Position numbers and translations under genes: made by a program. A stretch of 55,770 bases of DNA, from contig CAYPSK010000002.1 in NCBI GenBank assembly GCA_964413705.1, forward strand, positions 1-55,770. The letters run 5' to 3'. The DNA is from Candidatus Woesearchaeota archaeon. Lineage in GTDB: Archaea; Nanobdellota; Nanobdellia; Pacearchaeales; UBA284. A model generated the notes under the pieces. That model ran no database searches. It saw nothing but the letters and a program-made list of their open reading frames with translations, and was not told the DNA's origin. Shown piece after piece: positions 36,588 through 51,596 of this stretch (positions are counted from its first letter, which is position 1; each line of letters begins with the position of its first letter).

Positions 36588-39293
36588 ATGAAAAAGAAAG
36601 AAATATCCAAAAAAGAGATAAATAAATCAAGAAAATCAGAGAAATTAGAAAAAATGGTTCCTTTTTGTCCAAGATGCGGCTCAACTAAAATTGAATTTTT
36701 TGCAGGTAAAGCACCAATAATACAATGTCAGAATTGTAAATTCACCGGCTCTTTATTTCCAGAAGTTTCTCTAAAAAATCTTAAACAAGTTCAGGAAAGA
36801 ATAAAAAATAAAAAAAATGATGCATTAATAGATTTCTCCAGAATAGAGAAAAAATGGCAGTCTGAATGGGAAAAAGCTAAAATATTCCAAGTTAAGGAAG
36901 ATAGCAAAAAGAAGAAGTTCTATGTTCTCGAGATGTATGCTTACCCCTCTGCTTCGTTCTTACATGTTGGTCATGTGAGGAACTATACTATAGGAGATGT
37001 CTTTGCGAGATACAAGAGGATGCAGGGCTTTAACATCCTCTATCCAGTAGGTTATGATTCTTTTGGCCTTCCAGCTGAAAATGCAGCAAAAAAACAAGGG
37101 ATTCATCCTAAGAAATATGCCGAAGATGCTATAAAGAAGATAATAGAGTATCAAAAAGCCCTGGGGAATAGCTATGATTGGTCTAGGATGTTTGCAAGTC
37201 ACCAACCAGAGTATTACAAATGGAATCAATACTTCTTCTTAAAACTTTTAGAGCACGGATTAGCTTATCGAAAAAAAGCACCTGTAAATTACTGTGAACA
37301 CTGTCAATCTGTTCTTGCTAATGAAGAAGCTGAAAAAGGCAAATGCTGGAGATGTGGAAATGAAGTTATACAAAAAGAGATGGAACAATGGTTCTTCAAA
37401 ATAACAGATTATGCTGACAGATTATTAAAGGATCTAGATAAAATCCAGTGGTCGGAAAAAATAAAAACAATGCAGAAGAACTGGATAGGAAAAAGTGAAG
37501 GAGTTAACATATTTTTCAAATTAAAAGATTCGAAAAAAGTTTTAGAAGCATTTACAACAAGATGCGATACCCTCTTCTCAGTAACTTTTATTGCTGTTGC
37601 ACCAGAAAGCTCACTGGTTGACGAATTAATAAAAGGAACCAAATACGAAAAACCCGTCAAAGATTTCATTAAAAAAATTTTAAAAGAGAAAATAGAAGAT
37701 AGAATAAACGAAGAAAAAGAAAAAGAAGGAATATTTATTGGGAAATATGTAATTAATCCAACAACTAATGAGGAGATTCCCGTTTATGTTTCTAATTTCG
37801 TCCTTATGTACGGAACAGGAATTGTAATGTGTGATGCGCATGATAAAAGAGACTTTAGATTTGCTAGAAAGTATAAAATCCCATTAAAGTTTGTTATAAG
37901 TAAAGACGGCAAAACAATTAACCCAAAAGATTTTAAAGAGGCATACATGGATAATGGCATATTGTTTAATTCTGGAAAATTTTCAGGCATGAATAACCAA
38001 GAAGCCTTGCCCAAGATGGCTGATTGGCTTGAAAAAGAGAAAAAAGGTAGAAAAGTAACCCATTACAAATTAAGAGACTGGCTTATTTCAAGGCAGAGGT
38101 ACTGGGGGACACCAATTCCAGTTATTTATTGTGATAAATGCGGCATTGTTCCTGTTCCAGAAGATAAACTTCCAGTTCTTCTTCCTGAAAAAGTTGATTT
38201 CAAATCAGTAGGCAATCCATTATTATCCAATAAAAATTTTATTAATACTACATGCCCTAAATGCGGCGGAAAAGCACGAAGAGAGACAGACACACTAGGG
38301 GGATTTATGGATTCTTCATGGTACTATCTAAGGTATTGCGATAATAAGAACTCAGAAAAGCCATTTGATTCAAAAAAAGTGAATTACTGGATGCCTGTTG
38401 ATCAATACATAGGAGGGATAGAGCATGCAGTTGGCCATCTGATGTATGCAAGATTCTTGACTAAGTTTTTAAAAGATATAAATATGGTAAAGTTTGATGA
38501 GCCTTTCACCAGATTATTTAATCAGGGCGTAGTCTACAAAGACGGCAAAAAAATGTCAAAAAGTCAGGGCAATGTCGTTTTCCAGACAGAGATTTCTGAA
38601 AAATACGGAATAGATACTGCAAGATTATTCTTGACTTTCGTCTCTTCTCCAGACAAGCCAATGGAATGGACTGATGAAGGAGTTGAAGGAAGTTTTAGGA
38701 TAATAAATAGATTAATCCGATTAAAAGAAAAGATCTCAAAAGAATCTAATCCTTCACAAGAGAACAAGATACACTCAGCAATAAAGAAAGTTTCTGAGAA
38801 TATCGAGAATTTTGAATATCCTAAAGCTATTATCCCAATGACAGAGTGTCTAGACTCACTATCCGAATCAATAAAAAAACAAAATTATGAGATTTTACTA
38901 AAATTATTCCATCCATTCTGTCCGCATATCACAGAAGAGCTCTGGCACTCTCTTGGAAACAAGACATTCCTAAGCAAAGAATCCTGGCCAAAATTAAATG
39001 CAACCAAGATAAACGAGAACATCGAAAAACAAGAGCAGGCAGTTGAAAAAACAATTCAAGATATTAAGAACATAATCAAGATAATTAAAGAAAAACAAGA
39101 TAAAGACGCAAAGAAGATATACTTGTATACAATTCCCCCTGAGTTCAATACATATAACGAAGCAAAAGAGTCTATCACAAAATCAATCAATCTTCCAGTT
39201 GAAGTTTTTTCTGTTGACGACCCAAAGAAGATTGATCCTCAGAAAAAAGCAAAAAAAGCTAATCCTGGCAAGCCAGCTATTTATGTTGAATGA
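36588..39293 (+). CDS. leuS: Leucyl-tRNA synthetase, bacterial-type core, with ~85-aa N-terminal Zn-ribbon extension
   Basis: 901 aa. The core begins at IEKKWQSEW. LEMYAYPSASFLHVGHVRNYTIGDVFARYKRMQGFNILYPVGYDSFGLPAENAA matches the bacterial LeuRS pattern. KMSKS is present. The N-terminus carries CPRCGS...CQNCKF. Confidence 0.9.
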   Translation: MKKKEISKKEINKSRKSEKLEKMVPFCPRCGSTKIEFFAGKAPIIQCQNCKFTGSLFPEVSLKNLKQVQERIKNKKNDALIDFSRIEKKWQSEWEKAKIFQVKEDSKKKKFYVLEMYAYPSASFLHVGHVRNYTIGDVFARYKRMQGFNILYPVGYDSFGLPAENAAKKQGIHPKKYAEDAIKKIIEYQKALGNSYDWSRMFASHQPEYYKWNQYFFLKLLEHGLAYRKKAPVNYCEHCQSVLANEEAEKGKCWRCGNEVIQKEMEQWFFKITDYADRLLKDLDKIQWSEKIKTMQKNWIGKSEGVNIFFKLKDSKKVLEAFTTRCDTLFSVTFIAVAPESSLVDELIKGTKYEKPVKDFIKKILKEKIEDRINEEKEKEGIFIGKYVINPTTNEEIPVYVSNFVLMYGTGIVMCDAHDKRDFRFARKYKIPLKFVISKDGKTINPKDFKEAYMDNGILFNSGKFSGMNNQEALPKMADWLEKEKKGRKVTHYKLRDWLISRQRYWGTPIPVIYCDKCGIVPVPEDKLPVLLPEKVDFKSVGNPLLSNKNFINTTCPKCGGKARRETDTLGGFMDSSWYYLRYCDNKNSEKPFDSKKVNYWMPVDQYIGGIEHAVGHLMYARFLTKFLKDINMVKFDEPFTRLFNQGVVYKDGKKMSKSQGNVVFQTEISEKYGIDTARLFLTFVSSPDKPMEWTDEGVEGSFRIINRLIRLKEKISKESNPSQENKIHSAIKKVSENIENFEYPKAIIPMTECLDSLSESIKKQNYEILLKLFHPFCPHITEELWHSLGNKTFLSKESWPKLNATKINENIEKQEQAVEKTIQDIKNIIKIIKEKQDKDAKKIYLYTIPPEFNTYNEAKESITKSINLPVEVFSVDDPKKIDPQKKAKKANPGKPAIYVE

Positions 39294-40541: not shown

Positions 40542-40730
40542 ATGAATAAAAACAAGAAGTTCACAATCACAAAAAAGATAGCAAAACATGGTTCTCAGTC
40601 TATCATAGTTATTCCAAGAATTCTAGAATCTCATCTTAAACCAGGCACAATCGCCCAAGTCACAATCAATGTTCTCGAACAAGTTGCAAAGCCCGAATTA
40701 AACCTTGATGGAGGTAAAGATGGCAACTGA
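40542..40730 (+). CDS. Small SpoVT/AbrB-like DNA-binding protein (putative)
   Basis: 62 aa. KKIAKHGSQSIIVIPRILESHLKPGTIAQVTI resembles the AbrB-fold pattern. GGAG lies 6 nt upstream of the ATG. Confidence 0.45.
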   Translation: MNKNKKFTITKKIAKHGSQSIIVIPRILESHLKPGTIAQVTINVLEQVAKPELNLDGGKDGN

Positions 40731-41217
40731 GATGAAAACTAAAAAACCAAAGAAAGGATTAGAAAGTTATGTTGATACAGGAGGGACTGTGTCCTATTCG
40801 CTAGTTGTTGGGGCTCTTCTTGATTATGCAGCAGGCCAGAATCTTTCAGGAATAGCTACTTCAAGAGGATCTGCTACTGTTTTGAATTTAGTAACTGGCG
40901 CACCATATGGAAAATGGAGAAATTGGATGTATAGAATAACAAAAACAACTGATAAAAGTAGCAAAAGAAGACAATACTTTACAGACCTTCTAGCTTTCAA
41001 TACATTTCAGGTTCCTATTTATGCAATCGCGGCATCAAGTGGTACTTTGGTCTCTGAAGGCCATATAGATTTGAATAAAGTGTGGCATGGATCATTATAT
41101 CTTGCAACAATTTCACCTTTTATCGGTCCAACAAGGGGTTGGTATATGGACAGACTAAGAAAATTATTCAAATTAAAGTCAGCACCTGAAAAAGCATATT
41201 CGGGGAGGTCAAGATGA
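40720..41217 (+). CDS. AlaE (L-alanine exporter)-like small membrane protein
   Basis: ATG at 40720 has GGAGG 5 nt upstream; the listed start is a TTG at 40705. Segments GAPYGKWRNWMYRI, DLLAFNTFQVPIYAIA and GWYMDRLRKLFKL parallel AWPYGMYRDLFMRA, DILAYVTFQSPVYVAI and GYFLDYCRRLFKV of E. coli AlaE as I recall it. Confidence 0.55.
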   Translation: MATEMKTKKPKKGLESYVDTGGTVSYSLVVGALLDYAAGQNLSGIATSRGSATVLNLVTGAPYGKWRNWMYRITKTTDKSSKRRQYFTDLLAFNTFQVPIYAIAASSGTLVSEGHIDLNKVWHGSLYLATISPFIGPTRGWYMDRLRKLFKLKSAPEKAYSGRSR

Positions 41218-43505
41218 CAATAGCAATTGATGAAAAAGGAACTATTAGAGAAATCAACCCAGGTATGAATGATATTGAAGAAGGTCTTGGCTTCACACCA
41301 GTAAGCAGAGATGATGAATGGCCATATAAAGAATTAATAGAGAAAAATATAAAAGCTATGTTGGAAAGTCCATTAACTCCAATAGATTTGAAAAGACAGA
41401 TAGTAGAAGCACAGGAAACAGCTCATAATATTGTTAGGAATCGGGGCTGGAGCTCAGGGCCGAAATTATTTATTAAAGAAGATCCACAGAGAGCAGCCAC
41501 ATCTTTAGTTGATGGTGGAGCTTTCTACACATTACTGTATGAGATGCCTGGCTTGAGTTTAAAATTCAGAGCAAAAAAATCAGGAAAACAAGATAAATTT
41601 GAAAGATCAAGAAGAGTACAAGAGTATCTTATGACTCTGCAGGAAGCTGGTTTCCTTAGAGGTCCAAAAATTAATATCACAAGTTATAATGATGAGAAAT
41701 TAGAATCAAAATTAAGTGTTGAACCTTATGTAGAGCATGATAGGCTTACAGATGTACTAAGAAGAGCTGAAACAGATGCTGAAAAAGGCGAGATTCTTAG
41801 AAAGCATATATTAGATAGTCTTGAAATAAGCAGAGTCATGACAGCTTACAGCAAAATGAAAGATGAGAAGGGAGATTATTTCTTGAGAAAAAATTATTCC
41901 TGGACTGATTTTGTAAGAAATTTTCTTCCAGGAAATTATATTGTAGACAGCCAGGATGCAATGACACAATTCCTAAATGGATTTGCCCTAAGAGCAGTTC
42001 CAGGATTGCAGCAAAAAGTCACAAAAAAAGGAAAACTTTCAAAAGGGGGATTAAGGCAAGAGCCATTACTTGAAAATTTAAGAAAAGCATTTAACTCAGA
42101 ATTTAACTCATTTTATAGAGAAAGAAGCAAACACATTGTAAACACAGATACCCATACAGGAAATATTCTGGTGGATAGTATACATGGCGATACAGTACAT
42201 TGTGATTTTGAGCATACATACTTTGACTTACTTGAAGATCCGATTGCAGAGCTTGTTTTAACATCAGGGATTCAAGACAGAGAAGTCATAAAAGATTTAG
42301 TTGATAATGCTTTTGAAAAATATAAAGCTGAGATAAATGTCTCAAAAGAACAATTCTACGCTACTTTCCAAAGAAGATTGATTGAAAAAACACTTACCAG
42401 AGCAACAAGATTTCTAGATCTATCACAAAGGTTCTCAGGAAAAGATAGGAAAAACTTAGAAGACCAAGCAAATATGTTTTATTCTCAAGCTTTGCGAAGC
42501 ATGAAAGAATTAGATTTAAAACAAACAGCTTCTGCTGTTGAGGCTTATAATGAAAAATATCTAAAATTGAAGAGAACATCAATGAGGTCAAATGTTGATG
42601 GAACACTTGCTTCTTTAGTCAGTGGCGTGACATCTCCAAAAACTCGAGATGCTCCAATTACAAGACCAAAGGAAGCACGAAGAGCTTTTAGATTTGCATA
42701 CAGGACAGCCATTATAACTGCATGCGCCTCCGCCGCAATATTTGGGTTGCGTAATTGCAAAAATCTCACAGTTGAATCAGAACCAATTAGTTGGTTACAA
42801 CAAATAGACTATACTGATAATCAGTTAAATATTGTAATGCCGACAGTAGATATGTATAAACAGGTTCCAGATTCTGCATTAACAAAGGTAGACTTAAATC
42901 AAATGGATCCAAGACAGATTGCAAGAAAAGTTTTCCAGACAGATGATAATGCTTTAATAGATTCACTGATAAGAGCATATGCTCCATCTGATCCAAAGTC
43001 ACTTAGAAAATCTAGAATTGAATGGATCTTTGATCAAGTCGAAAGAAGAAGATCATCAGATGCAGATTTACTAAGGGCAATCCATTATGCTTCAAAAGAA
43101 ATGTATAAGGATAAACAGGGGGTAAAACCAGGCGCTTTTGGCACTATGTTGTGGCCAGCAAAAAATAATATTTATTTAAGAGAACGAATACGTTTAGGCG
43201 AAGCACAGCACCAAGATAATCATGGGTTGGACGTACATATTGCAGGAAGGATTATGTTAGATAATATGAAAGCATCTATAAACGATGGCAAGGTCAGGAT
43301 AGCAACTGCAGTAGCAGGTTATGTATCAGGGTTATATAATCTCGGAGAAGCACAAATTGATGCAGGTAGCAGAAGCTATGGAGAATTTAGGAGAAAAATG
43401 GACCCTGATGACAGAGAAGCTACAGATAGGATTCTTATAGGTTATCTAGCACTTAAAGATGCATTGCCTAAAGTTGGTATAAAATATGGCATTGCAAAGA
43501 ACTGA
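41214..43505 (+). CDS. 763-aa protein: N-terminal protein-kinase-like/APH-like phosphotransferase motifs, one TM helix, C-terminal lysozyme-like (SLT-like) region
   Basis: Start overlaps the previous stop (ATGA), with GGAGG 5 nt upstream. The catalytic-loop-like NTDTHTGNILVD (DxxxxN) followed by HCDFEH (DFG/DWE-like) resembles the APH/choline-kinase/ABC1 fold. Hydrophobic helix AIITACASAAIFGL at ~aa 490. The C-terminal part has ASKE...KPGAFGTMLWP...HIAGRIMLDNM...AVAGYVSGLYNLG, loosely matching SLT motifs (ES, GA.GLMQ, aG..yL, AYN.G). Confidence 0.55.
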   Translation: MTIAIDEKGTIREINPGMNDIEEGLGFTPVSRDDEWPYKELIEKNIKAMLESPLTPIDLKRQIVEAQETAHNIVRNRGWSSGPKLFIKEDPQRAATSLVDGGAFYTLLYEMPGLSLKFRAKKSGKQDKFERSRRVQEYLMTLQEAGFLRGPKINITSYNDEKLESKLSVEPYVEHDRLTDVLRRAETDAEKGEILRKHILDSLEISRVMTAYSKMKDEKGDYFLRKNYSWTDFVRNFLPGNYIVDSQDAMTQFLNGFALRAVPGLQQKVTKKGKLSKGGLRQEPLLENLRKAFNSEFNSFYRERSKHIVNTDTHTGNILVDSIHGDTVHCDFEHTYFDLLEDPIAELVLTSGIQDREVIKDLVDNAFEKYKAEINVSKEQFYATFQRRLIEKTLTRATRFLDLSQRFSGKDRKNLEDQANMFYSQALRSMKELDLKQTASAVEAYNEKYLKLKRTSMRSNVDGTLASLVSGVTSPKTRDAPITRPKEARRAFRFAYRTAIITACASAAIFGLRNCKNLTVESEPISWLQQIDYTDNQLNIVMPTVDMYKQVPDSALTKVDLNQMDPRQIARKVFQTDDNALIDSLIRAYAPSDPKSLRKSRIEWIFDQVERRRSSDADLLRAIHYASKEMYKDKQGVKPGAFGTMLWPAKNNIYLRERIRLGEAQHQDNHGLDVHIAGRIMLDNMKASINDGKVRIATAVAGYVSGLYNLGEAQIDAGSRSYGEFRRKMDPDDREATDRILIGYLALKDALPKVGIKYGIAKN

Positions 43506-43517
43506 TATCTGGGGCGA

Positions 43518-44396
43518 TTATAACGTAAGCACAAACAAATAATTAGTCATTCTTATTATTGCATTGTTCAGCTCATGTAGGTAAGGCCCAAAAGGTTTTT
43601 TCTTGTCTATCTTATTTTTTATTCTTTCATACTCTTTCGCAAAAGCCACAGCATCTTCTTTTTTGAAATTTAGGAACAGTTTTCTGAACATATCTAAGAA
43701 CTTTCTCAATGCTTTGATGTTCTCTATCTCCCCTTCTGTTATTCTTGTCTTTTCTTGAGCAAGTATAGCCACTGATTTTATTATATCCCCAACCTCTTCT
43801 AGATCATTTATTATTCCATAGACTTGTGAAGTCTTTGAAGGGTCGTCATAACCTTTTCTATTCAAGACTCTTAAACAAAAATTAACAAATTTATTTACAG
43901 AAGCGTCTATCTCTATAATCGGTTCAAGATTTTGCTTCTTCTCAAGCGCATTGATTAGCTCTTCAACCATAGAATCTAAAATAAGGAATATTCTGGCTAT
44001 TATATACACAATATTTTGCTCGCTTGCTTCAGTTATATCTTTTATAATAATAGTATTTTGCGTCTGCTTCATTATCTCAAATCCAAGAAGCTCACTCAAA
44101 ACTCTCCTTTGAAAATCCTTTATTTCATTGTGGTTTGAAAAATTCACTTCAATCTCATCAACTCCTCGGATATACAAAGATAATAAAACTCTATTGACTA
44201 ATGGATGATATCCTGAAATATCAATCTTAACAATATTTTTCTCTTTTTTAGCATGTTCTGCACATATAATCAAATTTTTTCCATTTTCCGTAACATCAAT
44301 TTCATCTCCTTTCTTGAGATTATTCCCTCTTGCCCATTTGCTTGGCAAGCTTATCATAAGTGTTGCTGCTCCTTGCTTGACGATTTTTCTTTTCAT
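43518..44396 (-). CDS. AbrB/SpoVT domain + PhoU domain regulator (archaeal PhoU-like)
   Basis: 292 aa. N-terminal KIVKQGAATLMISLPSKWARGNNLKKGDEIDV (AbrB fold), followed by a helical two-repeat PhoU-like region. Transcribed divergently from the 44583 operon. Confidence 0.75.
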   Translation of the reverse strand: MKRKIVKQGAATLMISLPSKWARGNNLKKGDEIDVTENGKNLIICAEHAKKEKNIVKIDISGYHPLVNRVLLSLYIRGVDEIEVNFSNHNEIKDFQRRVLSELLGFEIMKQTQNTIIIKDITEASEQNIVYIIARIFLILDSMVEELINALEKKQNLEPIIEIDASVNKFVNFCLRVLNRKGYDDPSKTSQVYGIINDLEEVGDIIKSVAILAQEKTRITEGEIENIKALRKFLDMFRKLFLNFKKEDAVAFAKEYERIKNKIDKKKPFGPYLHELNNAIIRMTNYLFVLTL

Positions 44397-44445
44397 TTTA
44401 TTTCATAAAAACTCAAAGAACAGCTATTTATAAACTTTTTGTTTT

Positions 44446-44458
44446 TGTATATACTTTT
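44446..44458 (+). promoter_or_regulatory. Shared promoter-region motif TGTATATACTTTT (copy 2)
   Basis: Identical 13-mer to 40477-40489. Lies in the divergent region between the AbrB-PhoU gene and the 44583 operon. A 10-bp (one bulge) inverted repeat TGTTACCATT/AATGGTAAACA follows at 44521-44552. Confidence 0.4.
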
Positions 44459-44582
44459 ATACTAGTATATATAGTATAATAAAAAAGTATAAATGTCATA
44501 ATTTCTGATTATAATTAGGTTGTTACCATTAAAGAGTAACCAATGGTAAACAAAACAGAACAAAACATTGAGGAAAAACAAA

Positions 44583-45152
44583 ATGACTGAACAAAGAACA
44601 ACTGAAGCAAAAAAATCAGCTGGAAATGATTTAGCAGTATATATGCCACACACTTTAGACATTGTAGGCCATATAAAAAGATTAGAGAAACCTATTAGCT
44701 CAATTAATCCAGAAAGTAGAATAGTATCAAATGGCAGCATGTATGCTGGGGGATTTTGCGATTTAACATTTAATCCGGAGCGTATTGGTGGGAGAGCATA
44801 TGTTCGATTCTTAAAAGCATTAGAAAGTATTCCTAAAAACTCTTCGCTAACAACTAGACTAAATTTTGCTTTATTTGGAGAGAATCCAAAAGTTGATGAT
44901 AATCTTGTCGTAGAACACGATGGAAGAAAGTACCAACAGCAATGGGTTGTAAGAACATCTCAATATGAAACAATTGTTTCATTATATAGGTATCAAGAAA
45001 ATAAACATGTAACAGGAGATTTTCCATTGAAATTAAAAGCATTAGTTGCAGAAGAAGTAAAAGAACTATGGACAAATGAATTATTGCTTTCTCTTTTTGC
45101 TCCATTAATGAACCCTCTTATTCAAACACATCAACAGATGATGCAATTTTAA
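44583..45152 (+). CDS. Hypothetical soluble protein (operon gene 1)
   Basis: ATG at 44583 (MTEQRTT...) is preferred over the listed TTG at 44568. 189 aa with no recognisable motif. Confidence 0.5.
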   Translation: MTEQRTTEAKKSAGNDLAVYMPHTLDIVGHIKRLEKPISSINPESRIVSNGSMYAGGFCDLTFNPERIGGRAYVRFLKALESIPKNSSLTTRLNFALFGENPKVDDNLVVEHDGRKYQQQWVVRTSQYETIVSLYRYQENKHVTGDFPLKLKALVAEEVKELWTNELLLSLFAPLMNPLIQTHQQMMQF

Positions 45153-45212
45153 AATAAAATCAAACAATAAATCAAAATCAAAAAACAAATTAAATAAACA
45201 AGGAGGATAAAA

Positions 45213-45908
45213 ATGAACCAAATAAAGAAAGCAGTATTAGTTGGATTATGTCTAGCAACAGCATATGCTGCAGCTGAAACAATAGGAACTGTCAAAGGAA
45301 TCAGAGAAGGTGTTGATGGAGCTTACTTTCATCAAGCAAGAGTCGCATTATCTCAAGATGGAAGTGTTGCAGCTAAAGTAGGGGTGAAATTTCCAGTTGG
45401 TCCTGTTAATGTAGATTTACTTGGATGTTATACTGGAAACCCAAGTCTTACAGCAGCTGTTTTAGGAGACAGATTTGGAATTGAAGGAACTTTAACAGAT
45501 GGAATGAAAACAGCAACTTTAGAAGGAACAGCTTTAGGATGCATGGCACAAGGAACTTTAACATCAACTGAAGAAGGTTTATCACAAAAACTTAGGGTTT
45601 CACATGCACAGCAACTTGAAAACTTGACAGCACAACTAGGAGCAAGTGTAACAAGAAATACAGGCAATGCATACACACTTGGAGCAGATGTTTTCTTGTT
45701 AAATGCAACAAAAATTGGAAGCACAAGTTTGTTCCCATATGTTGGAGCATCACTAGGAAAAGACATTTTAGGTTACAAATTTGCTGGTTGTGTTATTGCA
45801 CCTAAGGAAAGCAAGGTTTCGCTAAAAACTACATTAGGCAATGGTGGAAACTTGACTGACTTAAAAGCATACACTGCTGGTTTAGAAGTAAGAGCAGGTC
45901 TTGATTAA
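45213..45908 (+). CDS. Secreted Gly/Thr/Ala-rich, beta-strand-rich protein (operon gene 2)
   Basis: 231 aa. AGGAGG 6 nt upstream. Sec-type signal KKAVLVGLCLATAYAAAE. Alternating hydrophobic/polar strands (AYTLGADVFLL, LKAYTAGLEVRAGL) are reminiscent of beta-barrel or beta-sandwich proteins. Followed by a long T-tract. Confidence 0.6.
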   Translation: MNQIKKAVLVGLCLATAYAAAETIGTVKGIREGVDGAYFHQARVALSQDGSVAAKVGVKFPVGPVNVDLLGCYTGNPSLTAAVLGDRFGIEGTLTDGMKTATLEGTALGCMAQGTLTSTEEGLSQKLRVSHAQQLENLTAQLGASVTRNTGNAYTLGADVFLLNATKIGSTSLFPYVGASLGKDILGYKFAGCVIAPKESKVSLKTTLGNGGNLTDLKAYTAGLEVRAGLD

Positions 45909-45910
45909 AA

Positions 45911-45933
45911 TTTTTTATTTTTTTATTTTTTTT
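45911..45933 (+). terminator. Oligo-T tract (archaeal-type terminator/attenuator) inside the operon
   Basis: TTTTTTATTTTTTTATTTTTTTT begins 3 nt after the stop of 45213..45908. Confidence 0.4.
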
Positions 45934-45989
45934 AAAAATTTCCCAAACTCTCAGGAAAAATGTGATGATTAAAATGGAAATGAAAGAAA

Positions 45990-46364
45990 ATGACAGACAA
46001 TCTAGAAACAACAACAAAGAAAGAAAGTAGAGATGTCAACCTAAATGTACTAGCAGGTTTACTCTGCTTATTTTCGTCTAGCTATTTTCTTGGTTTCGGA
46101 ATCAGCTATATTTCAGAGTATTATAATGGTATCGCTGCTATTAAAAGTGCAATTTATTCAAGAGCAACAGAAATAACACCAGAGATAATAAGCCAAGCAA
46201 CTGAAACTGCATACAAACTTACAACATCAAATCATAGTCTTTTTTATGGAGTTAGCTTAATTATGGGAGCTGGGTTGATTGCAGGTTTTGGTTTTTATAA
46301 TCTTAGTAGAGCAGCACTACATGATGTGCCATTGGAAAATAAAAAGAAGGAGGAAGCAAAATGA
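45990..46364 (+). CDS. Two-TM membrane protein (operon gene 3)
   Basis: 124 aa. Hydrophobic segments VLAGLLCLFSSSYFLGFGISYI and LFYGVSLIMGAGLIAGFGFY. Confidence 0.55.
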   Translation: MTDNLETTTKKESRDVNLNVLAGLLCLFSSSYFLGFGISYISEYYNGIAAIKSAIYSRATEITPEIISQATETAYKLTTSNHSLFYGVSLIMGAGLIAGFGFYNLSRAALHDVPLENKKKEEAK

Positions 46365-46954
46365 CTGAAGAACATAACCCAGAAAGAGATAAAGTAAAAA
46401 GAAGAAGTACAGTAGACAGAACAAAACATGCATATAACTTAATGGTGTGTGAGATTAGATGTCATAAAAGACTAGAACCATTATATGAAGATGAAAAATC
46501 ATATGTTACCCATAATGTTTTATTCAGGAGATTAAATAAAATAGATTCTCGTTTTCAATTTAGGGGAAGTAATGAATTATGGGCCAATGTAAATGTGGAT
46601 TGTTCACGTTTAGATTCTAAATATTCAAGTGCAGGAGTTGATTTTGATTATAAGTCAACACATCTTGAATATCTTTTTGAAAGAGATTATCCTGCATCCC
46701 TATCTTATGTACTTTCGAAATTAGGGATAAGTTTAGGAGTCCAAGGAAGAACTTTTTATTTTTATTCTCCAGATGATCACCCAACTGTTGGTGATGAAAT
46801 CAAAGACACTGTATCAGAATGTTACAATAATTTACTGAGAATAGAACAATTCTTGAAAAATGGAGCATATGAACTTTTAAAAAGAAAAAAGGAAGAAAAA
46901 TTACAAGAAATTGTAGAAGAGCTTCGTCCTCTTTTGCCGGAGGCAGGAAAATGA
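46361..46954 (+). CDS. Hypothetical soluble protein (operon gene 4)
   Basis: 197 aa. ATGA start/stop overlap with the previous gene. GGAGG 7 nt upstream. Confidence 0.55.
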   Translation: MTEEHNPERDKVKRRSTVDRTKHAYNLMVCEIRCHKRLEPLYEDEKSYVTHNVLFRRLNKIDSRFQFRGSNELWANVNVDCSRLDSKYSSAGVDFDYKSTHLEYLFERDYPASLSYVLSKLGISLGVQGRTFYFYSPDDHPTVGDEIKDTVSECYNNLLRIEQFLKNGAYELLKRKKEEKLQEIVEELRPLLPEAGK

Positions 46955-47364
46955 CAAAAGCAAAACAAAAGCCAGATGAATTGACCTTGGATGAATGCAT
47001 CAAACTAGCAAAAATGGTTCCAGCCGAGGCGTGGCAAAAAACATTTAGAAAAGAAGAATATCCTAGACCTAACTCGGAGGCTTATCTAGCAAGTTACGAA
47101 TCTTTTAGAATCAAAGTTTCAGGATATCCAAGTTATGGTGATTCTTATGTTGAAGTATACTCACAAGGTTCATGCATGACAGGGTGGTACAGTGAATCAA
47201 ACTCTAGACTAGAAAATAAACTAGATAAGTTAAATAGGTTTATTAAAGAAAAACATGAAAATTATCAATTCGCAAGAAGACATAATCAACTAAAAACAAT
47301 AGAAGGTCAGGAAAGAATTAGTGAGGTTGCAAGAGCAAGAGCTTTGTTAAGGAGGGGAAAATGA
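46951..47364 (+). CDS. Hypothetical soluble protein (operon gene 5)
   Basis: 137 aa. ATGA overlap. GGAGG 7 nt upstream. Confidence 0.55.
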   Translation: MTKAKQKPDELTLDECIKLAKMVPAEAWQKTFRKEEYPRPNSEAYLASYESFRIKVSGYPSYGDSYVEVYSQGSCMTGWYSESNSRLENKLDKLNRFIKEKHENYQFARRHNQLKTIEGQERISEVARARALLRRGK

Positions 47365-47618
47365 CAGAACGAATATATTTTGTAGATGATTGGGGAAGTA
47401 GGCTTTTGAAATATAACATAGCGGTTAATAAGTTCCATGCTACACTGGATTTTTTCAAAGAAGATTTTCCTATTGTGTCTAATTATTGCTTGGGACTTGC
47501 TTCAAGAGCAGTCAAAGAACCAACATTTACAGAAATATTACACAAACTCCATCAAAACGGATTTAATCGGGGGGATATGAAAGCTGTAAAAGGGTTGATT
47601 CAAATGAATTTTATGTAG
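47361..47618 (+). CDS. Hypothetical small protein (operon gene 6)
   Basis: 85 aa. ATGA overlap. GGAGG 5 nt upstream. Confidence 0.5.
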   Translation: MTERIYFVDDWGSRLLKYNIAVNKFHATLDFFKEDFPIVSNYCLGLASRAVKEPTFTEILHKLHQNGFNRGDMKAVKGLIQMNFM

Positions 47619-47798
47619 GTTATGTAGATATCAGAGAACCTGAACAAGATGACTTACAACACAAACGTGTTATGTCTGCTATTCCCTCAGTAGCCAGATT
47701 TAATCTTATATATACTATTATGAAAGCTCCCTTATTTCATGGAGATTTTATAAGTGCAGTTGGATTGGGATTGAAAGTATTTACTTAAGGAGTAAAAA

Positions 47799-48137
47799 AT
47801 GACAATAAAAAAACATCTGCCAAGCATTACAAGCACATTAGTTCTTGGTGGTTCAATATTATTTTGTTTTGCTGCGGGAATTGTTGAAACCATCCCTAAT
47901 TGGAGATTGATAAATTATTATAATCGAGCTTTGACATTTTATGCAGATACAAGTGGAAATGGAAGAATAGAGCCTGATGAGGAAACCAAATTCTTAGATG
48001 ATTTTGTTGCAGATGTAAGAAAACTTCCAGGTTATGAAGATTTTAGATTAAGGGCGGAAGACATTCCAAAATCTAGTGTAGATGCCAAAACAATCCTTCC
48101 CTTGATGCAAGAATATCGTCCTGTTCCAACCTTCTGA
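47799..48137 (+). CDS. Membrane-anchored protein with a canonical EF-hand Ca-binding loop (operon gene 7)
   Basis: 112 aa. N-terminal TM (LVLGGSILFCFAAGIV). The loop DTSGNGRIEPDE (nt 47946-47981) fits DxSxNGxIxxxE. GGAG 6 nt upstream. Confidence 0.55.
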   Translation: MTIKKHLPSITSTLVLGGSILFCFAAGIVETIPNWRLINYYNRALTFYADTSGNGRIEPDEETKFLDDFVADVRKLPGYEDFRLRAEDIPKSSVDAKTILPLMQEYRPVPTF

Positions 48138-48239
48138 GGTAAAGCATATATCTTTTAATTGAGCACAATCTTTTTAAACTACTCTTTCTAAAAAAGGATA
48201 GATTAAAAAAGTCAATAAAAAAGGGTAAGGAACAAGAAA

Positions 48240-48512
48240 ATGTCTGACGAAAAAATAAAAATAGCTATGATGTCTGCTGCATCAAAAGCACTAGCCTACA
48301 AGAAAATAAATGCCCGGGCAGATCAAGAAGAGATTCTGCAGTTTGTCATGAATGACATGAGGGTAAGAGGACAGGAGAAAATAGGCGCAATGGTAGCAGC
48401 AAGCAAGGCTCTGAAATATAAAGAAGAAGAAAGTGACCTAAATGACAAGAAGATTATGCAGAAAGTCATGGATGATGCTAATGATATCCTCATGACAATG
48501 AGTATAGAATAA
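48240..48512 (+). CDS. Small protein made of two ~33-aa tandem repeats (operon gene 8)
   Basis: 90 aa. IAMMSAASKALAYKKINARADQEEILQFVMNDM and IGAMVAASKALKYKEEESDLNDKKIMQKVMDDA are clearly homologous. Confidence 0.5.
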   Translation: MSDEKIKIAMMSAASKALAYKKINARADQEEILQFVMNDMRVRGQEKIGAMVAASKALKYKEEESDLNDKKIMQKVMDDANDILMTMSIE

Positions 48513-48729: not shown

Positions 48730-49323
48730 ATGCAATATTGCGAAAGATGTGGCGCAAGGCTTATAGGGGATAAATGCCACAAGTGTGGAAAGAGCTATGA
48801 AAAAGTCAAGAACTTAGACATAGTTAAGCATACTGTAAATAAACAGATGCAAAGGCACGGCATAAGGCTTCCAACCACACCAAGACTAGTGATAATCTTA
48901 GCAATACTAGCTATCGCTGTTCTCCTTTCTTATATTATATTCTCTAAAGAGAAAACCCCAGACACAAGTTCTGTTCTCTCAAGAATCCAGAGTCAAGTTA
49001 CACAATCAACTCAACCAACATCCTCAGCTCAGACCCAGGCAGAGAATACTCCAACAAGAGCCTCTCTAAGAGTTTTTCATCAAATGGTTAATCAATTTGG
49101 AGGAACTCTAGGTTGTTTTGGCAGGGTTGATGGCGGAGTCACAAATACAGGCTCAATAGATGCCCAGGGCGTTAGGGTGATTTGCACAGCAGAAGAAGTT
49201 TCCTCTCAAAAAGATCTTGGAATGATAAAAGCAGGAGATACTCAGGCTTTTCAAGTCATCTTGAATTATGACTGTGAGCACATGAGAACAGAGGATTGCA
49301 CAGTAACATGCTCAAACTGCTGA
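48730..49323 (+). CDS. Zn-ribbon / single-TM / Cys-containing extracytoplasmic domain protein
   Basis: 197 aa. YCERCGARLIGDKCHKCG at the N-terminus, TM LVIILAILAIAVLLSYIIF, Ser/Thr/Gln linker, C-terminal domain with 5 Cys. Confidence 0.55.
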   Translation: MQYCERCGARLIGDKCHKCGKSYEKVKNLDIVKHTVNKQMQRHGIRLPTTPRLVIILAILAIAVLLSYIIFSKEKTPDTSSVLSRIQSQVTQSTQPTSSAQTQAENTPTRASLRVFHQMVNQFGGTLGCFGRVDGGVTNTGSIDAQGVRVICTAEEVSSQKDLGMIKAGDTQAFQVILNYDCEHMRTEDCTVTCSNC

Positions 49324-49802: not shown

Positions 49803-51596
49803 CTAGCTCTCCAGAACAGCTTTAATTCTTCTTACGCCCGCAGCAACAGCTTCTTCTTTAAGAATTCTAAAATGTCCGAGCTCTTTTAAGTCTTGGACAT
49901 GCGGGCCAGCGCAAATCTCACAGCTAAACTGATTCTTGCCTTTTTTATCACAGATACTATAAACTGAAACCTTATCTCCATATCTTTCTTTGAAAACAGC
50001 CTGAGCTCCCTTCTTCAGAGCCTCATCAACAGACATTTCTTCTCTCTTAACCTCTAATCCTTCCTGAATTTTTTTGTTGACAACATTTTCAATTTTTTTG
50101 AGTTCTTCATCTGTCAACTTTCTCTCAAAATTAAAATCAAACCTTAATCTTTCAGGGGTTATATTTGAACCTCGCTGTTGAATTTCCTCTTTCAAAACTT
50201 CTCTCAGTGCTTGATTTAGTAAGTGAGTTGCAGTATGTAATTTTGTAGTTGTTTCTGAATTATCTGCTAAACCAGATTTAAATTTTGTAATTATTGAGGC
50301 TCCCGATATTGTTTGGTGTTTTTTAAATTCATTTTCAAATCCTTCTTCATCAACCTTAATGCTCCTCTCAGTGCATAGGTCTTTAGTGATTTCAAAGGGA
50401 AATCCAAAACTCTGGTACAATAAAAAGGAGTCTTCTCCGCTTAATTTTCTTGTTTTTCTTTCTGAAATAATGTTTTCAAATTCTTTGATTCCTTTGTCAA
50501 GTGTTTCTTTGAATTTTATTTCCTCTTTCTCAATCTCTTCAAGAATAAAGTTCTCTGTATTCTTGAACTCTTTATAGTCACTATAATAATTGATAAATAT
50601 TTTCGCAAGCCTTTTGCAGAATTTTGCTTCAATTCCAAGTCTAAGTCCGAATCTTATTGCTCTTCTTATAAGCCTCCTTAAAACATAGCCCTGTTCAACA
50701 TTACTTGGAACAATACTCTCATTTAAGATGAAAACAGCAGCCCTGATATGGTCAACAATGATTCTCATCATCCTTGTATGGTCTTGATTAAATCCATAGT
50801 GCTTATCTGATATTTTTTCAAGTTCTTTTATTGCTGGCTGAAAAATCTCTGTCAGATAATTATCTTTTAATCCATTTAAAATAGTTAAGACTCTCTCAAC
50901 ACCCATGCCTGTATCAATGACCTTGCGATTAATATGCTCAAACTTCCCTTCTTTTGTTTTATTATACTGGACAAAAACATCATTCCATATCTCGCACCAT
51001 TCTTTTTCCTTAGATTCAGGATTGCTGTTGGGTTTTGGTTTTCCAATGCTAGCATAGACATACATTTCAGTATCTGGTCCACAAGGCCCTGTTTTTCCAG
51101 CAGGTCCCCACCAATTCTTCTCTTTTCCAAGAAAAACAATTTTTTTCTCATCTATTCCTAAATTTTTCCATATCTCTGCGCTCTCATCATCTCGCAGAGC
51201 ATCATCATCTCCTTTAAAGCATGAAATAGATAATTTTTCAAGGGGAATTTTTAAGACTTGGGTCAAGAAATCATAACTCATCTTAATTGCCTCTGCTTTC
51301 CAGTAATCTCCTAAAGCCCAATTGCCTAACATTTCAAAAAAAGTATGATGAAATGCATCTCCAACTTCTTCAATATCTCCTGTTCTTATGCATCTTTGAA
51401 CAGACACAAGTCTCTTTCCAAGAGGATGCTCTTGTCCAAGAATATAAGGAACAAGAGGATGCATGCCTGCTGTTGTAAAAAGACAAGTTGGGTCATTTTC
51501 AGGAATAAGACTTGCATTAGGCACTAGGGCATGTTTCTTCAACTTGAAGAAATTTACATATTGAGATATCAGCTCTTTTCTTGTTATTTTTGGCAT
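49803..51596 (-). CDS. alaS: Alanyl-tRNA synthetase, bacterial-type, short form lacking the C-Ala domain
   Basis: 597 aa. N-terminus F..KKHALVPNASLIPENDPTCLFTTAGMHPLVPY...VQRCIRTGDIEEVGD..HHTFFEMLGNWALGDYWK matches the bacterial AlaRS catalytic core. Editing-domain motifs HTATHLL and CAGPHV are present. The protein ends shortly after them. Confidence 0.85.
   Translation of the reverse strand: MPKITRKELISQYVNFFKLKKHALVPNASLIPENDPTCLFTTAGMHPLVPYILGQEHPLGKRLVSVQRCIRTGDIEEVGDAFHHTFFEMLGNWALGDYWKAEAIKMSYDFLTQVLKIPLEKLSISCFKGDDDALRDDESAEIWKNLGIDEKKIVFLGKEKNWWGPAGKTGPCGPDTEMYVYASIGKPKPNSNPESKEKEWCEIWNDVFVQYNKTKEGKFEHINRKVIDTGMGVERVLTILNGLKDNYLTEIFQPAIKELEKISDKHYGFNQDHTRMMRIIVDHIRAAVFILNESIVPSNVEQGYVLRRLIRRAIRFGLRLGIEAKFCKRLAKIFINYYSDYKEFKNTENFILEEIEKEEIKFKETLDKGIKEFENIISERKTRKLSGEDSFLLYQSFGFPFEITKDLCTERSIKVDEEGFENEFKKHQTISGASIITKFKSGLADNSETTTKLHTATHLLNQALREVLKEEIQQRGSNITPERLRFDFNFERKLTDEELKKIENVVNKKIQEGLEVKREEMSVDEALKKGAQAVFKERYGDKVSVYSICDKKGKNQFSCEICAGPHVQDLKELGHFRILKEEAVAAGVRRIKAVLES

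Follow-up and report, generated by a model that had tools for sequence, protein, structure and literature searches.

We analysed a stretch of 55,770 nt from a Candidatus Woesearchaeota archaeon (contig CAYPSK010000002.1, hereafter the window) and focused on an operon at positions 44583-48137. It encodes an exported protein, g2, which is predicted to fold into a porin-like β-barrel, and a membrane-anchored protein, g8, which contains a loop resembling calcium-binding motifs. The window is archaeal, carrying CDC48, TrmB, an AbrB-PhoU regulator and a presumably intron-containing tRNA. The nearest genomes, ranked by AlaRS identity, are Pacearchaeota/Woesearchaeota metagenome-assembled genomes (MAGs), namely L025 (87%), L021 (82%), L017 (a Lac Pavin Pacearchaeota locus, 75%) and L022 (72%), and the AlaRS of the L097/L098 locus is 72% identical to that of the window. 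The short metagenome contigs that contain operon genes are all 99.9-100% identical to the window and thus represent one population found in several samples.

An initial annotation, made from the sequence of the window, had described this region as an operon of eight uncharacterised genes, or nine if an additional frame is real. Below, g1 to g6 and g8 denote the listed open reading frames (ORFs) of the operon, g7x the extra frame and g9 a 90-aa gene located downstream. The operon, its regulator and its non-coding elements are as follows:

43518-44396, − strand: AbrB/SpoVT-PhoU regulator gene, divergent from the operon, with Pfam domains above the curated cut-offs
44424-44494, no strand assigned: divergent control region, near-invariant in three genomes, with putative promoter and operator roles
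44583-45152, + strand: g1, soluble ORFan of 189 aa and first cistron, with a GAGG site upstream and gene-like codon statistics
45213-45908, + strand: g2, exported protein of 231 aa from a six-member family, predicted 14-stranded porin-like β-barrel
45911-45933, + strand: oligo-T tract T6-A-T7-A-T8 (23 nt), starting 2 nt past the g2 stop
45950-45973, + strand: intergenic motif CTCAGGAAAAATGTGATGATTAAA, inside the DNA segment most conserved with L097
45990-46364, + strand: g3, ORFan of 124 aa with transmembrane segments at residues 18-38 and 84-102 and no homologue in the fetched loci
46361-46954, + strand: g4, soluble ORFan of 197 aa with an ATGA overlap and a GGAGG site
46951-47364, + strand: g5, soluble protein of 137 aa, a conserved scaffold gene with an 85% identical orthologue in L097/L098/L099
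47361-47618, + strand: g6, soluble ORFan of 85 aa, with a G6 run (47569-47574) 45 nt before its stop
47567-47788, + strand: g7x, open frame shifted by −1 against g6, with no homologue found
47799-48137, + strand: g8, protein of 112 aa with an N-terminal membrane anchor and an EF-hand-like loop at residues 50-61, conserved last gene of the operon

Between 44583 and 48137, seven ATG-started ORFs are tightly packed on the + strand, and the uniform orientation described initially extends to every ORF up to 48512. The three ATGA start/stop overlaps were likewise recovered, at 46361, 46951 and 47361. GGAG or GAGG occurs 8-14 nt upstream of six of the eight listed genes, compared with 6 of the 44 other genes in the window (Fisher p=0.001), an enrichment that bears out the proposed Shine-Dalgarno (SD)-led starts. 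The full GGAGG precedes 4 of the 8 listed genes and 1 of the 44 others (p=0.001), the sole outside case being a 763-aa gene of the same locus. Moreover, an ATGAC (Met-Thr) start is shared by six of the seven operon genes, as against 3 of 45 genes elsewhere in the window (p=3e-5), and the initiation sites are stereotyped as GGAGG-N-AAAATGAC. The same GGAGG...AAAATG(AC) starts are used in the L097 operon, and in L100 (4440-5540), where another g2-family operon is located, a near-identical initiation region, AGGAGGCAAATAAAATG, stands before three consecutive genes. GC content and codon usage of the operon match the rest of the window. With its common strand, three ATGA overlaps, SD sites before six of eight genes and a g7x stop 10 nt before the g8 ATG, the cluster has the features of a translationally coupled operon. 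What stands of the initial description is, therefore, a coupled cluster next to a dedicated regulator; a fixed set of eight or nine subunits does not, given the comparison with relatives below. Searches of the nine products against Pfam, PHROGs, NCBIfam and PADLOC returned nothing significant, and PDB sequence searches with g9 and with profiles of the g2 family, the 763-aa protein and g9 gave no significant match, in keeping with their description as uncharacterised.

The g2 family comprises five relatives in addition to the window copy (P0002, P0003, P0005, P0006 and L017_239). Two were found by a word-indexed search, two when a profile was run exhaustively against 1.84 billion representatives, and one in L017. 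A scan of genome contigs with the g2 profile gave no match, the divergent L017 copy being missed since the search pattern is absent there, and a metagenome scan for further relatives recovered only contigs already known. The signal-peptide-like N terminus proposed for g2 is present, with a Lys-rich n-region, a hydrophobic core at residues 7-25 and AYA/AAA before the mature part, as in a Sec signal peptide. It is conserved in all six family members.

Structure prediction of g2 with AlphaFold2 (AF2), using five sequences, reached a predicted local distance difference test (pLDDT) score of 74.8 and a predicted template modelling score (pTM) of 0.68, and all five models had pLDDT values of 65-75. 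The model contains 14 β-strands connected by turns of mostly 2-5 residues and closes into a barrel. When compared with the PDB using Foldseek, it gave 83 matches at E<=1e-3, of which the listed top ones were almost all bacterial outer-membrane barrels with a probability of 1.00. These included OmpU (E=3e-6), OmpG (E=5e-6, TM-score 0.50-0.52) and Omp33 (TM-score 0.50/0.53), and the leading matches in BFVD were phage-encoded proteins resembling porins or outer-membrane proteins (OMPs). In nearly every strand of the family, one face is hydrophobic (mean Kyte-Doolittle value +1.7) and almost charge-free, while the other is polar (−0.75). Since 14 strands closing into a barrel leave no packed core, the hydrophobic face would be expected on the outside. 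The C-termini of P0002 (...RAAF) and P0006 (...RYNF) resemble the bacterial β-signal, and in P0005 (...RYGFN) and L017 (...RYNFQ) a Phe is located one residue from the end. At the sequence level, g2 matched none of the OMP families of Pfam or NCBIfam at E<=1, the other members matched none of those in Pfam at E<=10, and a PDB profile search with the family returned nothing relevant. On the basis of the predicted fold, we consider with moderate confidence that g2 is a membrane β-barrel. The barrel could be inserted into the archaeon's own outer layer or into a host membrane.

The second element of interest is g8. As initially predicted, it has one membrane segment, and g3 has two. Orthologues of g8 were found in L097 (61% identity), L101 (57%) and L017 (38-39%), where the gene directly follows the g2-family gene. 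Across the four sequences, the anchor and the ligand positions of the loop are kept, and the C-terminal EYRPVP is invariant (QEYRPVP in three of the four). The g8 loop, DTSGNGRIEPDE, follows the 12-residue ligand pattern of EF-hands and is the only match to it across the open frames of the window (28,622 aa). The initial annotation had called this loop a textbook EF-hand, a label that does not hold: position 13 is Glu rather than a hydrophobic residue, so that DTSGNGRIEPDE fails PROSITE PS00018, Pfam EF-hand models give no match at E<=1, and g8 has a single loop. Judged by its residues, it is EF-hand-like rather than textbook. Comparable loops occur in other membrane-anchored proteins encoded at related loci, namely DVNEDGLDD in L097_124 and DIDGDNQKE in L100_117. 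A Pfam search of the g2-family members and of the cassette proteins of L097, L100 and L101 yielded one match, a sub-threshold FG-GAP hit (E=0.009) for L097_124. The pairing of a predicted barrel with a membrane-anchored Ca-loop-like protein is recurrent, sometimes with non-homologous parts. Together, the exported and predicted porin-like g2 and the membrane proteins g3 and g8 agree with the envelope character ascribed to the operon.

The position of the cluster was compared among related loci, whose gene orders are summarised below (sizes in aa; − marks the minus strand; percentages are identities to the window):

Window: LeuRS, o128 (−), TrmB, small AbrB ORF, AlaE, 763 aa, PhoU (−) / g1, g2, g3, g4, g5, g6/g7x, g8 / g9 / dn197 / o95 / AlaRS (−)
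L097/L098, left side: TrmB, 91, 53, AlaE, 773 aa (77%), PhoU (−) (70%), MTase (−)
L097/L098, first part of the operon: 82 (two transmembrane segments), 335 (signal peptide, ends ...AYVGFN), 179, 134, 124 (DVNEDGLDD loop), 134, 122, 132
L097/L098, second part of the operon: g5 (85%), flavin reductase 204, 128, 149, g8 (61%), α/β-hydrolase 351
L097/L098, right side: g9 (66%), dn197
L101: LeuRS, 112 (−), 91, 62, 735 aa (43%), PhoU (−) (75%) / g2-family (232), 143, 170, g8 (57%) / Fic / g9 (72%) / 77 / dn197
L017: VapBC-like pair ... / g2-family (239), g8 (38-39%) / g9 / dn197 / AlaRS
L025 (nearest relative): 2.4 kb between g9 and TrmB, with Doc/Fic-like and RelE-like toxin-antitoxin genes; no g1-g8, 763-aa or PhoU gene
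L018, L019, L020: g9 directly adjoins LeuRS

From these gene orders, the cluster occupies a chromosomal hot spot between a g9/AlaRS side and a LeuRS/TrmB side. The recurring elements are the regulator, the 763-aa protein, an exported protein of the g2 family (or an analogous one) near the start and g8 at the end. L017 shares the right-hand part only, from the g2-family gene through g8, g9 and dn197 to AlaRS, with toxin-antitoxin genes upstream. The conserved synteny sought at the outset is thus present in part: an AbrB/PhoU regulator, a g2-family gene and then g8 recur in related Pacearchaeota, and the complete gene order does not. In L025, the segment 13400-15700 encodes a Doc/Fic-like protein of 111 aa (HIFEDGNKRTA) and a RelE-like protein of 109 aa paired with one of 80 aa, and it also holds a small AbrB ORF. 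The 335-aa secreted protein of L097 was tried as a g2 homologue and rejected (hhalign probability 0.4%), leaving it as a positional analogue.

A nucleotide comparison (blastn) of the window with L097 resolved the operon into a mosaic:

Conserved: 44424-44587 (82%), 45896-45990 (89.6%), g5 at 46948-47369 (85.5%) and g8 at 47796-48144 (72%)
Non-homologous: g1 and g2 at 44588-45895, g3 and g4 at 45991-46947, g6 and g7x at 47370-47795

The boundaries of these segments coincide with start and stop codons. The conserved scaffold consists of g5, g8, the g2 family and two non-coding parts, namely the promoter/operator region and the oligo-T intergenic region that follows the second gene, whereas g1, g3, g4, g6 and g7x are private to the strain and have unrelated genes at the same positions in L097.

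The control DNA is among the best conserved parts of the locus. The divergent region at 44424-44494 is near-invariant across three genomes whose proteins share merely 43-77% identity. It contains a TATA-like element, CTATTTATAAAC, at 44424-44435, a perfect palindrome, TATACTAGTATA, at 44458-44469 within an AT-rich repeat block, and a second TATA-like element, GTATAAAT, at 44487-44494. This arrangement suggests that two divergent archaeal TATA boxes flank an operator. Further downstream, a segment of the 5'-untranslated region (UTR) at 44519-44550, GGTTGTTACC, is conserved at 6080-6118 of L097; in each genome it provides the 5' arm of a hairpin, with differing 3' arms. The folding energies of the 5'-UTR are −8 kcal/mol in the window (z=−0.8) and −9.4 kcal/mol in L097 (z=−2.2), which is weak evidence for a conserved leader structure. 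A stretch inside g7x (47707-47726), about 75 nt upstream of g8, is 90% complementary to the operator-like block at 44454-44473. It could be a second operator, an internal promoter or a chance similarity in AT-rich DNA.

The segment at 45896-45990 is the most similar to L097 in the whole region, although the genes flanking it differ. The oligo-T tract reported after g2 is there, and T-runs follow the barrel gene or its positional analogue in four loci (the window, L097, L017 and L101). The RNA fold of this intergenic region is not significant (z=+0.7), which fits archaeal oligo-T termination, as this works without a hairpin. The tract is likely an archaeal terminator or attenuator; the attenuation suggested for 45911-45933 gains support from the conserved T-runs and the lack of an RNA fold, short of proof. 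The adjacent motif CTCAGGAAAAATGTGATGATTAAA has one copy in the window and was absent from the viral contigs searched. It may be an internal translation-initiation or promoter element. After the T-tract, a conserved leader, (GTG)ATGATTAAA.T.GAAA, covers 45960-46030 of the window. The next gene is read in the same frame as this leader in L097, L017 and L101, and its product thereby gains an MIKLxxx...K extension at the N terminus. The window copy lies 25 nt from the g3 ATG, hence out of frame, and would form a 21-aa upstream ORF (45965-46030) overlapping the g3 start. A scan for sigma-70 promoters and hairpin terminators was uninformative, these signals not being applicable to archaea.

As for the remaining genes of the operon, no homologue of g1, g3 or g6 was found in any fetched locus, the g1 position being occupied in L097 by an unrelated 82-aa gene with two transmembrane segments. 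The search for g4 returned nothing but itself among 5.8 billion proteins and no relative in viral contigs. For g5, the protein search returned one relative, and the codons that differ from the orthologue comprise 25 synonymous and 21 non-synonymous changes. Its 85% identity was considered as a sign of recent transfer, which we rejected because this pair of genomes shows comparable identity in TrmB (87%) and the 763-aa protein (77%). Of the ends of twelve independent short metagenome contigs (loci L003-L013), ten fall inside g5, and further contig ends lie at 45880/45919, 47798, 48140 and 48512, the boundaries between scaffold and cassettes. A relative with an 85% identical g5 co-occurs in the same samples, with a longest exact match of 39 nt. 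This clustering may reflect assembly-graph branching or real population variation; we do not claim recombination at the population level, as a shared stretch of 35-39 nt suffices as a technical cause.

The extra frame g7x overlaps the end of g6 at the G6 run, where no canonical slippery heptamer is present in the zero frame. Both frames have gene-like codon statistics, the log-likelihood for g7x being +0.31 bits/codon, where the two alternative frames score −0.46 and −0.38. The TAA that ends g7x overlaps the AAGGAG SD sequence of g8 and lies 10 nt before the g8 ATG. No ATG, GTG or TTG start is available before 47672. The sequence of g6, including the G run, is identical in six independent assemblies and thus not an assembly error. 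We consider it likely, with fairly high confidence, that g7x is coding, as the initial annotation had allowed. It could belong to a 142-aa g6-g7x fusion made by −1 frameshifting in the G run, represent a gene frameshifted recently, or contain a 38-aa ORF that begins at 47672.

Two further genes of the locus adjoin the regulator and the end of the operon:

41214-43505, + strand: gene for a 763-aa protein (AlaE-763 pair), with a GGAGG site and an ATGAC start
48240-48512, + strand: g9, two-repeat protein of 90 aa, separated from g8 by 102 nt, a separate core gene

The predicted divergent AbrB-PhoU regulator has both domains, SpoVT/AbrB (PF04014, E=7.8e-8, 32.6 bits for a cut-off of 24.7) and PhoU (PF01895, E=1.4e-5, 25.8 bits for a cut-off of 23.5). 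Its orthologues in L097 (70%) and L101 (75%) adjoin the operon in both cases, and the 763-aa gene always adjoins the regulator, with orthologues at the same position in L097 (773 aa, 77%) and L101 (735 aa, 43%). No Pfam domain was found in the 763-aa protein, which contains the motif HTGNILVD...CDFEHT, a segment around residue 500 that is weakly hydrophobic, and a conserved C-terminal domain. A protein-kinase-like catalytic motif is possible, with hints from PI3_PI4_kinase (E=0.12), ABC1 (E=0.04) and PDB 2pyw (MTR kinase, E=0.32), all below threshold. Upstream of and overlapping the AlaE-like gene, an unlisted 62-aa SpoVT/AbrB-like ORF (MNKNKKFTITKKIAKHGSQSIIVIPRILE...) at 40542-40730 (+) is conserved in L025, L097 and L101; given this overlap, the TTG start assigned to AlaE at 40705 may be wrong.

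The tandem repeats described for g9 are real, repeat 1 aligning to repeat 2 of an orthologue at E=3e-4, consistent with an internal duplication, and neither profile nor PDB sequence searches assigned it to a family. Its membership in the operon, as first listed, is not supported: g9 is a core gene found beside AlaRS or LeuRS in nine relatives, some of which lack g1-g8, and its upstream motif, ATAATCTTT(T/A)TAAA, a conserved promoter motif of its own, is kept whatever gene lies before it. The adjacent dn197 (48730-49323, +), conserved beside g9 in L017, L025, L097 and L101, encodes an uncharacterised protein with an N-terminal zinc-ribbon-like CxxC...CxxC, one strong transmembrane segment and a Cys-rich C-terminal domain ending in CSNC. 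Elsewhere in the window, the AlaRS (49803-51596, −) is short (597 aa) and looks bacterial-type; its matches outside Pacearchaeota/Woesearchaeota, at 45-55% identity, are from Patescibacteria (CPR) and other bacterial MAGs. The LeuRS (36588-39293, +), with the bacterial-type editing domain PF13603, also looks bacterial-type. A tRNA gene of 124 nt at 63-186 (−), presumably intron-containing, was detected by an Rfam match (54 bits) and missed by ARAGORN.

Starting from the gene structure, the conservation map and the fold prediction, we infer a scheme of regulation, termination, membrane insertion and function in which the locus is an envelope operon, lineage-specific and subject to cassette shuffling, whose core would be an exported porin-like barrel together with a membrane-anchored Ca-loop-like protein. 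We give this scheme about even chances. The divergent AbrB-PhoU regulator would probably act on the conserved palindrome between the two TATA-like boxes. A first unit, g1-g2, would end at the oligo-T terminator, so that the Sec-exported g2 would be made in excess, while expression of the coupled g3-g8 would depend on read-through or on an internal start located in the conserved intergenic element. For g2, the prediction is a porin-like transmembrane β-barrel that is monomeric and has 14 strands joined by short loops, and g8 would be a bitopic membrane protein exposing a domain with the Ca2+-loop-like motif. Together with small membrane proteins such as g3, they would form or modify an envelope pore or contact structure, placed either in the archaeon's own outer layer or in a host-cell membrane. 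The comparison shows g1, g4 and g6/g7x, all soluble ORFans, as well as g3 to be exchangeable cargo that varies among relatives. The dedicated envelope or host-contact module proposed initially is thereby reduced to a small conserved envelope core with dedicated control DNA, the remaining genes being strain-specific and g9 lying outside it.

Several observations weigh against this scheme, and some of them would equally suit a mere collection of accessory ORFans that evolve fast at a recombination hot spot, devoid of joint function, where g2, g5 and g8 are simply longer-lived residents and the operon form and SD sites only mirror the way in which new genes come to be expressed at such a site. 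The whole cluster is missing from L025 and is, hence, dispensable; five of the nine frames have no homologue, which leaves a shared function unsupported for them (g4 is without a relative among 5.8 billion proteins, and g1, g3, g6 and g7x without any in the fetched loci); and the cassettes are wholly different between the window and L097, where g8 is accompanied by the non-homologous secreted 335-aa protein. In addition, the g2 family has other neighbours, and no g8, on two short contigs (L001 and L100). Such a collection of unrelated orphans accounts for the private genes, but not for a regulator, a control region and a post-barrel intergenic region that are more conserved than the coding DNA, for the order with a g2-family gene first and g8 last in three genomes, or for the mix of exported, membrane and Ca-loop proteins that reappears in L097 and L100. 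We, thus, rate it as clearly unlikely. Toxin-antitoxin genes at the same hot spot could instead mean that the site is a defence island and the variable genes its defence or toxin-antitoxin cargo, with the envelope proteins as bystanders or abortive-infection effectors. The Doc/Fic-like and RelE-like genes of L025, the Fic gene between g8 and g9 in L101 and the VapBC-like pair next to the g2-family gene in L017 point in this direction, yet PADLOC gave no match for the nine products at E<=1, and Pfam and NCBIfam searches revealed no nuclease, ATPase or toxin domain, making this reading improbable. An integrated virus, plasmid or other mobile element would explain the variable gene content and the SD usage and start context, which are unusual for the window. 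We consider it extremely improbable, since the links to viral or plasmid backbones, named at the outset as grounds for abandoning the idea of a module, were looked for and not found: no PHROG matched, phage DNA and plasmid protein searches were negative, as were IMG/VR scans for g2, g4, g8 and the intergenic motif, no integrase was present, and a repeat search for att sites gave nothing convincing. GC content and codon usage match those of the surrounding genes, and the cluster keeps the same chromosomal position and regulator in several species.

The nature of g2 is a separate matter. It might be a soluble or wall-associated secreted β-rich protein, such as an adhesin or an S-layer-associated protein, whose barrel is an artefact of a shallow alignment. 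The barrel comes from one AF2 model built on five sequences, a three-sequence alignment having given an unusable model (pLDDT 33); TM-scores to porins are about 0.5, no OMP family of Pfam matches any family member, and a crude score of β versus α hydrophobic moment, in which g2 ranked 4th of 52 proteins, was non-discriminating. The window copy ends in ...RAGLD, without a terminal aromatic residue, and P0003 ends in ...RARLN. Moreover, no Omp85/BamA-type insertase or second membrane is known for Pacearchaeota, and OMP-type barrels are not known in archaea. A full-text literature search combining DPANN with barrel, porin or outer membrane found no description of OMP-type barrels in Pacearchaeota and yielded only a remark on Altiarchaeales, for which a possible distal porin-like relative is mentioned in passing (PMC12228718). 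What makes a non-pore g2 somewhat unlikely is that all five models have pLDDT values of 65-75, that outer-membrane barrels account for nearly all of the top PDB matches listed, with porin-like proteins leading in BFVD, and that C-termini such as ...RYNF and ...RAAF resemble the β-signal. A closed 14-stranded barrel, furthermore, should not be able to bury its charge-free hydrophobic face inside.

If g2 is a barrel, the stronger claim would be that Pacearchaeota encode a genuine family of transmembrane β-barrel porins, exported by Sec and partnered with g8. This claim is tentative, possible rather than probable. DPANN archaea are tiny episymbionts, and outer-membrane proteins of the β-barrel type are generally taken to mark diderm bacteria and organelles. 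Such a fold in a family native to archaea would be unexpected, more so with a conserved partner and regulator, and this would be the first native archaeal system of OMP-type barrels. It would imply either an outer, porin-bearing envelope layer or a porin inserted into the host membrane to tap metabolites, and cassette turnover would tune host or phage specificity. The predicted porin-like barrel is, in our view, the most interesting element of the locus, which offers concrete candidate proteins for testing in a largely unexplored question, the envelope architecture of DPANN archaea and their ways of drawing metabolites and lipids from hosts. The locus is also a compact natural example of accessory envelope gene turnover in reduced genomes, with genes replaced at exact boundaries within one coupled operon around strongly conserved regulatory DNA. 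Should the barrel prediction fail, it would be an ordinary lineage-specific accessory island.

Among known systems, the closest counterparts of g2 are the monomeric 14-stranded porins OmpG of Escherichia coli and Omp33 of Acinetobacter baumannii. They share with g2 a signal peptide, about 210 mature residues, 14 antiparallel strands (predicted in g2), a charge-free hydrophobic strand face and a composition rich in Gly, Ala and Thr, as well as C-termini such as the ...RYNF and ...RAAF of family members, and they are its best Foldseek matches (TM-scores 0.50-0.53). Sequence similarity is lacking, with 8-13% identity in structural alignments and no Pfam OMP match. Unlike these porins, g2 has almost exclusively loops of 2-5 residues, its window copy ends in ...RAGLD, and it belongs to an archaeon without a known outer membrane or BAM machinery. 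The double-membrane archaea Ignicoccus and Altiarchaeales would provide a precedent for an archaeal outer compartment in need of pores. The outer-membrane pore protein of Ignicoccus is α-helical, and the g2 family is unrelated in sequence to anything described.

The g8 loop is comparable to the EF-hand and DxDxDG loops of calmodulin-type proteins, dockerins and FG-GAP repeats, with Asp, Ser, Asn or Glu at positions 1, 3, 5, 9 and 12, Gly at position 6, flanking helix-like segments and ligands kept in four orthologues. It differs from them in being single and unpaired, in its PS00018 failure, in the lack of a Pfam match and in its predicted extracellular location. Transcription factors of the PhoU type form a populous family in archaea (PMC6316755). 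The protein encoded at 43518-44396 resembles those members that add an AbrB/SpoVT DNA-binding domain, having both domains, and its link to the operon is suggested by the conserved divergent arrangement and the conserved palindrome only.

As a whole, the cluster resembles the flexible (hypervariable) islands for surface structures known from bacteria and archaea in its fixed position, its conserved flanks and regulatory DNA, its non-homologous content between close relatives and its enrichment in exported and membrane proteins. Glycosyltransferases and other classic island genes are absent from it. In contrast to such islands, replacement takes place inside a single coupled operon and respects exact gene boundaries, the scaffold genes g5 and g8 are interspersed among the variable ones, and the genes share stereotyped GGAGG...AAAATGAC starts.

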